A stretch of DNA of 64,000 nucleotides, taken from the IMG/VR virus record IMGVR_UViG_3300025316_001101. One strand, written 5' to 3'. Position 1 is the first letter of the stretch; each line of letters starts with the position of its first letter. Both the position numbers and the translations under genes were made by a program. Below the pieces are notes generated by a model, which was not told the origin of the DNA, ran no database searches, and saw only the letters and a program-made list of their open reading frames with translations. Source of the DNA: a virus (taxonomy: Duplodnaviria; Caudoviricetes). Of this stretch, positions 6,686 to 56,523 are shown piece by piece.

Positions 6686-6689
6686 TCAG

Positions 6690-6763
6690 CCGGAAGTAAA
6701 GGATTTGAACCTCTATACCTACAACTTGCGTTGTAGTGCTCTAACCAATTGAGCTAACTTCCG
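6690..6763 (-). ncRNA. anticodon-less tRNA mimic (GCAA tetraloop)
   Basis: cloverleaf with anticodon arm CTACAAC-GCAA-GTTGTAG. Confidence 0.85.
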
Positions 6764-6835
6764 TCAACGAGAATGGACTTGAACCACCGACCTCCTACAG
6801 GTTTTGTAGGTGCTCTTTCACTGAGCTACTCGTTG
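6764..6835 (-). ncRNA. tRNA-like RNA with non-canonical anticodon loop
   Basis: CAACGAG/CTCGTTG acceptor; CCTACA-AAACC-TGTAGG arm lacking U33 and purine 37; T-loop TTCAAGT. Confidence 0.8.
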
Positions 6836-6839
6836 TCAG

Positions 6840-6913
6840 CCGAAGGTAAAGGACTCGAACCTCTATCCCTACAACTTGCGTTGTAGTGCTTTAGCCAATT
6901 AAGCTAACCTCCG
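6840..6913 (-). ncRNA. anticodon-less tRNA mimic (GCAA tetraloop), paralog of 6690-6763
   Basis: same CTACAAC-GCAA-GTTGTAG arm; compensatory changes in acceptor and D stems. Confidence 0.85.
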
Positions 6914-8345: not shown

Positions 8346-9059
8346 TCAACTCCTGGCCAAATAATTTTTCTGAAGAGCGTCCTTTGACCACAATTTCCCC
8401 TGAACGAATCCATGTCGCACCATCTTAAAACGATGGGTAATCCAGCGATTATCCTTGCTAACCTTGATGTAAATACCTTCCCGTGGTTCCTTAGTCGTAA
8501 ATGGCGACGGTTGGAGAGTGAACTCCTCAATTTGGGGGTAATTCTCTACTGGGCCACTCCAAATCAACGGCACCAAATCAAATCCACAGACAGACAACAT
8601 CTCTCTGGCTTTGTCCGTCCTTACGAACTGCCCTTCGGCATAATCATAAAGATCATAGGCCACAAACCAGCCGGGTAATTTATCGTACTCCAAACCATGC
8701 TGGGCCACCATCCACTCGCCATAAACAGAAGCGTTTGGATAAACCCCTTCCAGAGCCTCAAAAAAATCCTGATGATCGTAAAACCAATTCCAAATCGCAA
8801 CAAATTGTCTCTTGGCTGGAGTGTCCTTTTGAAAACCCTTCTTGAGAATGTGATCCCGATTACGAATTACCGGATGTCCATCAATAAGAGCCATACCACA
8901 ATTCGCACCATCGATCTTCTCCTCAACATAAACATGCGGGAGTTGAAAAATGATGTCAGCGTCGTTTGCCGTTAGGTCGCCTCGCTGAGTGTTTGGCTTC
9001 CAAGGTAAATGCAACGTCCGAGGAAATTCCGGCAATTTGTGAAGGTTCTTAGGTTTCAT
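8346..9059 (-). CDS. ATP-dependent RNA ligase (Rnl1/Rnl2-type nucleotidyltransferase)
   Basis: FPRTLHLP, motif I EEKIDGAN, VYGEW, FVAYDLYD, EGIYIK, RFKMVR. Confidence 0.88.
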   Translation of the reverse strand: MKPKNLHKLPEFPRTLHLPWKPNTQRGDLTANDADIIFQLPHVYVEEKIDGANCGMALIDGHPVIRNRDHILKKGFQKDTPAKRQFVAIWNWFYDHQDFFEALEGVYPNASVYGEWMVAQHGLEYDKLPGWFVAYDLYDYAEGQFVRTDKAREMLSVCGFDLVPLIWSGPVENYPQIEEFTLQPSPFTTKEPREGIYIKVSKDNRWITHRFKMVRHGFVQGKLWSKDALQKNYLARS

Positions 9060-11005: not shown

Positions 11006-11227
11006 TACCGCACCGTGTCATGGTCAATCCACTTTTTATCGATCCACAATTTTCTTTCTTTGTATGGCTGTTGAACAAGCACATGAACTTCATTTTCATT
11101 AAAGTCTAAAATTTCACAATCAATAGATTGTTTGCTACGACGATGAGCACCCGTAAATGCAGTTGCATTAATTTTAACTGTCTTGCCTTTTTCTAAATCC
11201 ATAAATTCTCCAAAAGTAAACACATAG

Positions 11228-11301
11228 CCCGTTTGGTGGGACTCGAACCCACGACATGCGACTTTAGAGATCGCCGCTCTAACCAACTGAGCTACAAACG
11301 G
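11228..11301 (-). tRNA. amber suppressor tRNA (anticodon CTA)
   Basis: canonical cloverleaf CCGTTTG/CAAACGG, GCGAT-CT CTA AA-GTCGC, T-loop TTCGAGT, G73. Confidence 0.9.
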
Positions 11302-11659: not shown

Positions 11660-11778
11660 TGGCCAAGACAGGAATCGAACCTGTATACTCTAAGTTTGTC
11701 GCAATGGCTTACTATGAACAAAGCTCACGCTTTGGACCCCCAACTCCACCTAAAGTTTTACCATTAATATACTCGGCC
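11660..11778 (-). ncRNA. tRNA-like RNA with a ~54-nt insert in the anticodon loop
   Basis: acceptor GGCCGAG/CTTGGCC, T-arm ACAGG-TTCGATT-CCTGT, D-loop AATGGTA, stem TTAGG/CTTAG around the insert. Confidence 0.65.
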
Positions 11779-32994: not shown

Positions 32995-33009
32995 ATATAT
33001 TTTTTCAAG

Positions 33010-33136
33010 CTGCCGAGAGTCGATTCGAACGACTTCCTTTTGATTAACAGTCAATTGATGTAGTTCCAACTGCATGCGTTGCCGCCAAGGGTCGCTGAAA
33101 CTTTCATTTTTTATGCTACCATTACACCACTCGGCA
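33010..33136 (-). tRNA. tRNA-Asn(GTT) with a ~56-nt insert between D-arm and anticodon arm
   Basis: TGCCGAG/CTCGGCA; GTGT-AATGGTA-GCAT; TTGA-CT GTT AA-TCAA; AGTCG-TTCGAAT-CGACT. Confidence 0.75.
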
Positions 33137-55268: not shown

Positions 55269-55504
55269 CCTAAAACTTATACCGGTTCGGGCTGTCCCGA
55301 CCGGCGTATGCCTTGGTTCAGGACGTAGTGTGGCTAATATGACCGTGTTTCGGCCAGCATTTACCACTACGTCTTGTAATCAAAGCAAATAACATTTTCG
55401 TTTCCTTTACACCTTAGACGCACCAAGCGTCCAAAAGGTTCACTAAAAAATGGGCCGGTCATATAGACACGGCCAACCTCTCACCAAGAGAGGGGAGTCG
55501 TAAG

Positions 55505-55577
55505 TGGCAGACCCAGGTTCCGACCCTGGAAGCCTCGGCTTATGAGACCGAGAAGGCGACCACGCCTACCATCTGCT
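55505..55577 (-). tRNA. tRNA-Met(CAT), 1:72 mismatch, non-canonical T-loop
   Basis: TCGGT-CT CAT AA-GCCGA; A1:C72; T-loop GTCGGAA. Confidence 0.75.
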
Positions 55578-55582
55578 ATAAG

Positions 55583-55675
55583 TGGTGGGGGCTGGGATCG
55601 AACCAGCGATCTTCAGGTTATTCTAGGGCTTGTCTGAGCCAAGAGCCTGACGAGATGCCTCTTCTCCACCCCACG
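55583..55675 (-). tRNA. initiator-type tRNA-fMet(CAT) with a 21-nt insert at anticodon position 34/35 (55622-55642)
   Basis: CGTGGGG start with C1:C72 mismatch; TCAGG-CTC[TTGGCTCAGACAAGCCCTAGA]ATAA-CCTGA. Confidence 0.8.
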
Positions 55676-55694
55676 TCATGTATTCTTATATATC

Positions 55695-55726
55695 TATTAT
55701 ACGCTGAAATTTTCGTTTGTCAAGTC
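55695..55726 (-). promoter_or_regulatory. sigma70-type promoter driving the 55.7-52.5 kb tRNA operon
   Basis: TTGACA-N16-TATAAT, identical to 33923-33954. Confidence 0.85.
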
Positions 55727-55803
55727 GGAATTTTTCAGAAGCTCATCGGAATTTCTCTGCCATCCAATTTCAACGAAGAAATCAACGGTAATATATAATT
55801 TCA

Positions 55804-56523
55804 ATGAAACAATCAGATTTGATCATCCTTAGCTCTACTCGGAACAAAACCATAGAGAATTTTGAAATTAAGATGCTTGATTCCTTTTGCAGGACGACTC
55901 CTCAAGAATGCAAAATGTTAGTCATAGAAAATAATTCCAATGCAGTGGATCATGCTCAATGGAAAGAATGTGTCGAATCAAAAGGCCAAACATTTATGTT
56001 TTTTGATGGAGAATTCAACATAAACAAAATGTACAATTTGGGGACCAAATTAACCACCAGTGAATATGTGATGTATGCTAATTCAGATATTGTATTTCAC
56101 ACGAACTGGTATCGTAATCTTTTGAATTGGTTTGATGTCACGCCCAATCTATTTGTCGTATCGCCTTTTTCTAAAGCCCTAGTTCCTGACGTAAATAGAC
56201 ATGGAGTATACAGAACCGATGTGATGCCCGTCAGATATATTCACGATACCGTTTACATACCTGGATGGTTTTATTGTTTGAAGCGATCAAGTCATTTCGT
56301 GTGGGATGAAAACTTCCGGGCACATTTTCAAGATGTGGATTTTGTTTATACGCTTGAAAGAATGAGAAAGAAAGACAATAGCATTAAAAGCGGAATAGCC
56401 TACAACAGCAGAGTTGATCACTTGTGTGGCGGCACGGCTCACAATGCATCTCAATACTATTACACCACACAAGGCGAATATGCTTGTTTCGCCAAGTGGG
56501 GAGTGGGCAAGAAGTGGAATTAG
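55804..56523 (+). CDS. glycosyltransferase family 2
   Basis: NINKMYNLG, YANSDIVF (DxD-like), WDENF..FQDVDF. Confidence 0.8.
   Translation: MKQSDLIILSSTRNKTIENFEIKMLDSFCRTTPQECKMLVIENNSNAVDHAQWKECVESKGQTFMFFDGEFNINKMYNLGTKLTTSEYVMYANSDIVFHTNWYRNLLNWFDVTPNLFVVSPFSKALVPDVNRHGVYRTDVMPVRYIHDTVYIPGWFYCLKRSSHFVWDENFRAHFQDVDFVYTLERMRKKDNSIKSGIAYNSRVDHLCGGTAHNASQYYYTTQGEYACFAKWGVGKKWN

Follow-up and report, generated by a model that had tools for sequence, protein, structure and literature searches.

Introduction

In archaea and eukaryotes, introns of transfer RNA (tRNA) genes form a bulge-helix-bulge motif and are removed by the EndA or TSEN endonuclease together with the RtcB or Trl1 ligase, the archaeal introns being found also at non-canonical positions. 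Archaeal/eukaryal splicing enzymes, acting on junctions of the bulge-helix-bulge type, also serve the circularly permuted tRNA genes known from Cyanidioschyzon merolae and some archaea. Group I introns, which are hundreds of nucleotides (nt) long and contain a catalytic core, interrupt cyanobacterial tRNA-fMet and tRNA-Leu(UAA) as well as proteobacterial tRNA-Arg and tRNA-Ile. Splicing of tRNA by proteins is not known from bacteria or their viruses, whose described tRNA introns are ribozymes. Broken tRNAs are rejoined in phage T4 infection: the host nuclease PrrC cuts host tRNA at 33/34, and T4 Pnkp and Rnl1 rejoin tRNA broken in the anticodon loop. In this study, we analyzed a 64,000-nt stretch of DNA (hereafter the window) from IMG/VR virus record IMGVR_UViG_3300025316_001101 (Duplodnaviria; Caudoviricetes), which carries at positions 55583-55675 an initiator-type tRNA gene interrupted in its anticodon loop by a 21-nt hairpin.

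From Lak megaphages, 'enigmatic' tRNA introns have been described which, to the knowledge of the authors, were the first phage tRNA introns reported (Devoto et al. 2019, PMC6784885). These introns are identical across cohorts, occur in some genomes and not in others, and their mechanism was left unexplained; the tRNA-Tyr intron is about 93 nt long and located 3′ of the anticodon, while another one was reported to have a tRNA-like fold (PMC6784885). A survey paper on huge phages does not mention introns. In the full-text literature searched, we found neither a description of short or mini tRNA introns of the present kind in phages nor one of a permuted tRNA in a phage. A family of 21-22-nt hairpin inserts interrupting phage tRNAs that are standard in all other respects would be a sign of a new pathway of RNA cutting and joining, and the natural insert-free allele, the permuted tRNA in the same genome and the T4 Rnl1-type ligase described below are reasons to take such a pathway seriously.

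Results

The interrupted initiator tRNA gene

The window is part of a single virus record of 259 kb with 41% G+C, classed as provirus by IMG/VR and estimated by CheckV to be about 50% complete. The gene and its parts are as follows:

55583-55675, minus strand: interrupted initiator-type tRNA gene of 93 nt, with C1 at 55675, A73 at 55583 and CCA not encoded (Rfam and ARAGORN)
55643-55675, minus strand: 5′ exon with tRNA positions 1-34, ending ...CTC (C32 U33 C34), from the insert-free allele and the spliced model
55622-55642, minus strand: 21-nt hairpin insert consisting of U, stem UGGCU, loop CAGACA, stem AGCCC (outer U.C unpaired) and tail UAGA, missing in a contig of run X5 (RNAfold)
55583-55621, minus strand: 3′ exon with tRNA positions 35-73, starting ATAA (A35 U36 A37 A38), from the insert-free allele and the spliced model

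Rfam model RF00005 matched the gene end to end from 55675 to 55583 with 45.3 bits (threshold 29; E 1.6e-08 locally) and assigned 24 extra nt to the anticodon loop. ARAGORN without introns found a tRNA that was not assignable, and in intron mode it called Lys(CTT) with a 21-nt intron placed 1-2 bases further 3′. The body of the tRNA has the traits of an initiator. Its acceptor stem, CGTGGGG/CCCCACC, places C1 opposite C72 (a C x C mismatch), leaving no Watson-Crick 1:72 pair, as expected of an initiator; the canonical bacterial form is C1xA72. The D stem GAGA/TCTC gives the A11:U24 pair, likewise an initiator trait, and the T arm is standard. The anticodon stem TCAGG/CCTGA encloses a loop of 28 nt and has G:C next to the loop at two of the three expected pairs (G30:C40 and G31:C39), 29:41 being A:U. 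CAU in a 7-nt loop, as an initiator requires, appears only once 55622-55642 is removed: after deletion of the insert in silico, ARAGORN called a tRNA-Met(CAT) with a clean cloverleaf and the loop CTCATAA.

In the complete relative G001, the initiator gene is free of an insert and shares C1xC72, A11:U24, A29:U41 and the loop CTCATAA, and the identical TCAGG...CCTGA arm occurs in bacterial initiator genes of several phyla, also in the same lakes. The remaining two Met tRNAs of the 259-kb contig have G1:C72 and are elongator types. By its sequence, the gene at 55583-55675 is thus recognizable as a phage initiator tRNA gene (tRNA-fMet, anticodon CAU) with an insert between C34 and A35. The original prediction had described the same body, naming the CGTGGGG start, the 1:72 mismatch, the TCAGG/CCTGA stem and the 28-nt loop, and the Rfam score together with direct reading of the sequence bears it out.

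In runs X2-X4, there are also contigs of higher depth that agree with the tRNA over its 3′ half only (55587-55621, with 3 mismatches) and then turn into a bacterial initiator tRNA of the classical kind, with GGTAGCTCGTCAGGCTC before the loop and ...CCCCGCAAC at the 3′ end; they belong to another organism in the same lakes. Assigning a host from this lake bacterial-type initiator tRNA was rejected, as genomes of Patescibacteria, Verrucomicrobiota, Anaerolineae and others contain an identical one.

A natural allele without the insert

Contigs of four sequencing runs were compared over 55300-55900. An 837-nt contig of run X5, obtained from lake water in a different study, matches 55300-55724 except for one substitution (55330) and 21 letters absent at 55622, i.e. 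one single-nucleotide polymorphism (SNP) over 404 nt. The gap corresponds exactly to 55622-55642 and cannot be slid either way, its position being fixed because the bases at the two junctions differ. The resulting natural sequence reads CTCATAA with the junction C34|A35, just as had been foreseen for the removal of 55622-55642. Neither a target duplication nor a duplicated or shared base was found at the insert junctions. The X5 contig extends through the promoter of the gene, and the strain has its own SNPs downstream; it therefore represents a DNA allele of a sister strain and not a transcript.

Run X2 and ENA assembly L251 have the insert-bearing allele in identical form, and in two more ENA records the flanking genes are 436 nt apart, just as in this allele, so that the source sample, X2, L251 and two ENA records stand against one insert-free contig. 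Pattern scans of IMG/VR revealed neither insert-bearing nor insert-free copies. The 21 nt are a discrete natural indel unit that was gained or lost recently, the insert-bearing form being the commoner one among the samples. The natural allele CTCATAA also excludes, at the DNA level, the register that would yield Lys(CUU). This alternative had been raised in the original prediction and set aside there in view of the fMet-like body; the insert-free allele and the G001 initiator with the same features lead to the same decision.

A family of hairpin inserts

Application of the ARAGORN intron mode to the whole 259-kb contig revealed further interrupted tRNAs, and one was found in the nearest GenBank phage relative, the 595-kb uncultured phage LR756511.1 (DnaE 49% identical). 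The four inserts are given as 5′ stem strand / loop / 3′ stem strand:

Window 55622-55642, minus strand: fMet insert, 21 nt; UGGCU / CAGACA / AGCCC
Gene at genome 5204-5312: Leu(UAA) insert, 22 nt; AGCGA / CAGUCA / UCGCU
Gene at genome 226755-226850: Arg(UCU) insert, 22 nt; GGGGC / AAGUCA / GCCCC
LR756511.1 (595-kb relative): insert in elongator Met, 21 nt; CGGGU / UUAUCA / ACCCG

Without manual shifting, all four line up in one register, in which a single nt is followed by a stem of 5 positions, a loop of 6 nt with CA as its last two letters, and a tail of 4-5 nt. The stem cells are paired in 19/20 cases (95%), the exception being the outermost U.C of the fMet insert, and four of the five pairs are changed on both sides while the CA at the loop end is invariant. 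The covariation score was reached by 1/500 shuffles, and pairing was lost when the partner was slid by one column; with n=4 sequences the test is small, the stems differing in sequence while pairing stays.

According to insert-free orthologues in relatives, the mature loop is CTCATAA for Met and CTTAAAA for Leu. In fMet, Met and Leu, a single nt precedes the stem after the 5′ junction; in Arg(UCU) there are 1 or 2 such nt, the site being ambiguous because of a repeated T. In tRNA numbering, the inserts are located at 34/35 (fMet), 32/33 (Met of LR756511.1 and Leu-UAA) and 33/34 or 34/35 (Arg-UCU). The original prediction of one processing rule at 34/35 is not upheld by these positions; the shared rule follows the distance from the hairpin and not one tRNA position.

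In the rest of the genome, the hairpin pattern gave 93 matches compared to 80 in shuffles, and the three G+C-rich ones among them were the tRNA inserts. A dispersed-repeat origin of the hairpin was rejected in view of this chance-level count. An alignment-based search retrieved 18 related contigs from IMG/VR, the largest of 527 kb, and tRNA scans of these revealed no further 21-22-nt hairpin inserts; the tRNA regions of the five largest were analyzed with the ARAGORN intron mode, while the other 13 gave few tRNA hits, none of them over-long.

Several tRNA genes have extra nucleotides of other kinds. A Val(UAC) gene at genome 209999-210094 (insert L008 16031-16052, outside the window) has 22 extra nt in its anticodon loop; they form a longer hairpin with loop GUAU that pairs with the anticodon, a different layout which was not counted as a family member. 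The tRNA-Leu(UAA) of relative G002 (L236 858-952) carries a 10-nt mini-hairpin insert, AAG-UCGG-CUU, and the tRNA-Arg(UCU) of relative G003 (L238 10482-10605) a 52-nt insert; the isoacceptors interrupted in G002 and G003 are the same two that are interrupted in the window's genome. A permissive initiator-tRNA pattern, in which C32 and A37 were separated by 22-30 nt, gave 9 viral and at least 120 metagenome matches, nearly all of which were chance matches in coding sequence and only three of which (L079, L064 and L098) were tRNA-like. L079 7583-7679, on metagenome contig Ga0209521_10005308, is an unrelated initiator-type tRNA with a 1:72 mismatch and a 23-nt insert without clear hairpin between U33 and C34. 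Short inserts in initiator tRNA genes exist elsewhere, too.

Predicted fold and intron classes

RNAfold reproduced for the precursor the fold proposed in the original prediction, in which GGCU pairs with AGCC around the loop CAGACA, and UCU with AGA at the base of this hairpin; AUAA stays single-stranded. All four arms of the family share a predicted fold in which the anticodon stem is followed by 1-3 extra pairs (loop bases 32-34 with the 3′ end of the insert) and then by the hairpin, a single-stranded 3′ tail carrying the rest of the loop.

The fMet precursor lacks the two 3-nt bulges with a 4-bp helix between them that define a bulge-helix-bulge; in its predicted fold the 5′ junction lies within a 3-bp helix and the 3′ junction at the border between helix and 4-nt tail. 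A group I or II intron was rejected, as 21 nt cannot contain a catalytic core and no Rfam intron family was found: at gathering level and up to E 10, Rfam reported only tRNA in the gene, and a 13-bit group II fragment (E up to 10) outside it was at chance level. The earlier judgement that the insert is too small for a ribozyme and not a clean bulge-helix-bulge is therefore retained, on account of its size of 21 nt and of the 5′ junction inside a helix. Recognition of the junctions in the manner of RNase E or of RNase P/Z was also rejected; inspected by eye, the junction sequences do not obey any one known site rule, and CCA is absent from the tails.

A circularly permuted tRNA-Asn in the same genome

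32665-32749, minus strand: circularly permuted tRNA-Asn(GUU), whose reordered halves give a perfect cloverleaf

The gene consists of tRNA positions 35-73 (32749-32711), a 13-nt linker (32710-32698) and positions 1-34 (32697-32665). With the halves reordered, ARAGORN called a perfect tRNA-Asn(GTT), confirming that this gene is permuted and breaks at 34/35 as had been stated before. Its 5′ half ends with G34, which abuts G1 of a tRNA-Arg(CCG), and its 3′ half begins 1 nt after a tRNA-Lys(CUU). Without an RNA ligase to connect positions 34 and 35, the permuted tRNA-Asn could not function.

Ligases and end-healing proteins

Window 8346-9059, minus strand: RNA ligase of 237 aa with a nucleotidyltransferase domain only (Pfam PF09414, E 3.4e-25; PHROG RNA ligase families)
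Genome 112970-114286, outside the window: T4 Rnl1-type ligase of 438 aa (phrog_562, E 1.2e-41; Pfam T4_Rnl1_C, 27.4 bits at a cut-off of 27)

A phage ligase able to join such ends had been postulated, and with these T4 Rnl1-type and PF09414 ligases suitable candidates are encoded. The Rnl1-type ligase has the tRNA-specific C-terminal domain, as expected for a repair set of the T4 type. Two AAA_33 P-loop proteins gave weak matches to phrog_505 'polynucleotide kinase' (E about 1e-7), and a separate metallophosphoesterase is present in the phage contig. A PDB sequence search with the 237-aa ligase gave no match. The Pfam Rnl1 core model matched neither the contig nor any control genome and is thus uninformative.

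Expression signals, genome and relatives

55696-55723, minus strand: consensus sigma-70-type promoter (TTGACA, 16 nt, TATAAT) ending 20 nt upstream of C1; 12/12 hexamer matches, 0.4 expected in shuffles
55507-55576, minus strand: tRNA-like cloverleaf of 70 nt directly downstream of the initiator tRNA in the same unit (minimum free energy cloverleaf, z = -2.2)

The downstream cloverleaf has a 7-nt loop, CUCAUAA, equal to the mature initiator loop, combined with a non-canonical T loop (GUCGGAA) and D arm (5-bp D stem with a 4-nt loop), a 6-bp acceptor stem and a 7-bp anticodon stem. Neither Rfam nor ARAGORN called it; it may be a tRNA look-alike with the anticodon loop of the initiator. A hairpin followed by a T run was seen by eye at about 55444-55474, which the terminator scan did not call.

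According to ARAGORN, the 259-kb contig contains 48-52 tRNA genes; it also encodes a DnaE-type polymerase, PrkA and SpoVR. The promoter type, the polymerase and the tRNA features are bacterial. The locus was found in freshwater/lake metagenomes of ten studies, while searches with the neighboring glycosyltransferase, methyltransferase and 1176-aa protein yielded no relatives.

Other unusual tRNA genes were observed. At window 6689-6913 (minus strand), ARAGORN reported two 'tRNA-???' genes with a 2-letter 'anticodon' and no usable anticodon loop on either side of a tRNA-Val(AAC). At window 11660-11778 (minus strand), Rfam found a 119-nt tRNA match that scored 32.4 bits and has about 45 additional nt separating the D arm from the T arm; ARAGORN did not call it. 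Two over-long tRNA-like genes, called by ARAGORN as Ser-GGA with 33 additional nt at window 33009-33136 (minus strand) and as Val-AAC with 37 additional nt at genome 128960-129089, have GTTTCAGCG and AGTTGGAACTACATC in common in their inserts, which represent a second, different insert family. LR756511.1 also contains two over-long tRNA genes of 126 and 128 nt (L017 11133-11258 and 13310-13437) with 38-53-nt inserts having GCATACAAACA in common, so that relatives carry other insert types, too. Finally, tRNAs with the amber-reading CUA anticodon, called 'Pyl' by ARAGORN, are present at window 11227-11301 (minus strand) and genome 210663-210736; they raise the question of TAG being read as sense in part of the genome.

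Discussion

A candidate cut-and-join pathway

We consider the probability to be roughly one half that the insert is a mini-intron which is cut out by a hairpin-reading protein nuclease and whose exons are joined by the Rnl1-type ligase. In such a pathway, the initiator tRNA gene would be transcribed from its own consensus promoter to a precursor presenting the insert as a short hairpin stacked on the anticodon stem, with the 3′ part of the loop, AUAA, single-stranded. A putative protein endonuclease of phage or host would read the hairpin and cut 1 nt before and 4-5 nt after the stem. If needed, the ends would be healed by the kinase-like and phosphoesterase proteins of the phage, and the T4 Rnl1-type anticodon-loop ligase would join them to the normal 7-nt loop CUCAUAA. 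The tRNA-Asn might be matured by the same ligation step: RNase P would free the G34 end with a 3′-OH when it cuts the downstream tRNA-Arg at its 5′ end, and the U35 end would result from 3′ processing of the upstream tRNA-Lys, which leaves one spacer C between the two unaccounted for.

That the loop is restored when the insert is removed is not in itself evidence of splicing, because any clean insertion leaves removable flanks, and the case for excision rests instead on four points. A conserved, covarying hairpin in a fixed register supports it as far as the four sequences allow, and so does the fact that this hairpin is confined to the anticodon loops of intact tRNAs and recurs in two phages with DnaE proteins that are only about 46-49% identical. 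Support also comes from the prevalence of the insert-bearing allele and from the independent need of anticodon-loop ligation posed by the permuted tRNA-Asn.

Several results weigh against this interpretation. Presence or absence between near-identical strains indicates a recent event, so that exon conservation at this locus carries little weight. The genome contains tRNA mimics without usable anticodon loops, and therefore non-decoding tRNA-like RNAs are part of its biology. EndA (PF01974) and RtcB had no match in the 259-kb contig, which by CheckV is about half of the genome; this search yielded no endonuclease candidate, and PrrC/RloC/colicin-type nucleases were not covered by a family search. 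Within this phage clade, RNA ligases are widespread regardless of inserts. Ligases of the PF09414 type were found both in insert-bearing and in insert-free relatives, among the latter G001. The Rnl1-type ligase is present in G000, LR756511.1, G003 and also G004, where inserts were not seen; it was not found in G002, which is 69% complete and has a 10-nt insert, nor in G001, which is complete and has none. With a sample so small and mixed, the co-occurrence of ligase and insert adds no support.

Alternative explanations

The insert might instead be retained, the hairpin-bearing RNA being a non-decoding tRNA look-alike that acts as bait or shield against host anticodon-loop nucleases or as a regulator, while the host initiator tRNA does the decoding. 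Such a function would be in keeping with the tRNA-like genes without valid anticodon loops at 6689-6913, with the further cloverleaf directly after the initiator gene and with the lack of an endonuclease in the EndA/RtcB searches of the contig; moreover, a conserved hairpin would be expected equally of a splicing signal and of an element bound by protein. However, the inserts interrupt otherwise standard, isoacceptor-specific tRNAs (fMet, Met, Leu and Arg) whose loop flanks match insert-free orthologues, the same gene of the sister strain is an ordinary initiator tRNA, and the permuted tRNA-Asn demonstrates that RNA joining in an anticodon loop is needed anyway, so that we regard a retained insert as unlikely. 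We are more doubtful still about a recent neutral or harmful DNA insertion, e.g. of a small hairpin element moved by a transposase in trans, which would have knocked out a dispensable tRNA gene. Phage tRNA genes are in general often dispensable, and the two alleles differ by just one SNP over 404 nt. Against this stand the greater frequency of the insert-bearing allele (source sample, X2, L251 and two ENA records vs one insert-free contig) and the four inserts, each in an anticodon loop in the same orientation and register in phages as distant as those two, without target duplication, shared flanking target word or extra genome copies.

Two further possibilities concern the chemistry and the product. 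Another splice register could give the anticodon CUU (Lys), or two products could arise, as the ARAGORN call of Lys(CTT) with the intron 1-2 bases further 3′ suggests and as the first five loop bases, CUCUU, equal the start of a Lys(CUU) loop. This is very improbable in view of the natural allele CTCATAA, the initiator-type body matching the insert-free initiator of the clade in G001, and the family register, in which a 5′ junction 1 nt before the stem yields CAU; in addition, ARAGORN found two standard tRNA-Lys(CTT) genes already present in the contig. Self-removal of the insert as a ribozyme, be it group I/II or a small self-cleaver, would agree with the fact that the bacterial tRNA introns described so far are all self-splicing, but a group I or II core does not fit into 21 nt, and even at E up to 10 only tRNA was found here by Rfam, so that this explanation can hardly be entertained.

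Significance

On a broader scale, we tentatively propose that huge freshwater phages might use a new protein-dependent tRNA splicing in a bacterial setting, although we would not yet rate this as probable: a 16-nt hairpin would guide a nuclease, mini-introns of 21-22 nt would be excised, and an Rnl1-type ligase would rejoin the exons and also assemble a permuted tRNA whose ends are provided by the processing of neighboring tRNAs. If true, the RNA ligases common in large phages would have a physiological role beyond the repair of defence damage, and phage tRNA function would depend on phage enzymes. If the inserts are not spliced, they would represent a new kind of engineered tRNA look-alike relevant to the conflict between phage and host over tRNAs. 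The system is small and well defined, with a 93-nt precursor, known junctions and candidate enzymes, and hence directly testable.

Comparison with known systems

Like archaeal and eukaryal introns, the phage insert is short, lies in the anticodon loop, is too small for a ribozyme and would presumably require an endonuclease and a ligase. Unlike them, it does not offer the 3-nt bulge/4-bp helix/3-nt bulge structure, its 5′ junction being in a predicted helix, and it is located 5′ of or inside the anticodon instead of at 37/38; furthermore, the host of the phage is bacterial by all signs, and no EndA or RtcB match was found in the contig. With the bacterial group I introns, the inserts have in common that the same kinds of tRNA (fMet, Leu-UAA and Arg) are interrupted in the anticodon loop and that their distribution among relatives is patchy, whereas they differ in consisting of a single hairpin of 21-22 nt and in belonging to no Rfam intron family. 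The known bacterial splicing mechanisms do not explain the insert family, which may well depend on a new mechanism.

The permuted tRNA-Asn resembles known permuted tRNAs in that its 3′ half is upstream of its 5′ half and a join is needed in the anticodon loop; in contrast to them, its 5′ half abuts the 5′ end of a downstream tRNA, and its 3′ half starts 1 nt after an upstream tRNA. As in T4 repair, the phage has an Rnl1-type ligase with the T4 Rnl1 C-terminal domain together with kinase-like proteins. The T4 system mends a single cut in a host tRNA with nothing removed, whereas here two cuts would be made in the phage's own tRNA and 21 nt would be lost. Similar to the Lak introns, the inserts are intervening sequences in tRNA genes of a very large phage and are present or absent among genomes. 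They differ from the Lak tRNA-Tyr intron, the one compared by sequence, in being 21-22-nt hairpins 5′ of or within the anticodon, and they occur in a different phage lineage and in another habitat, namely freshwater.

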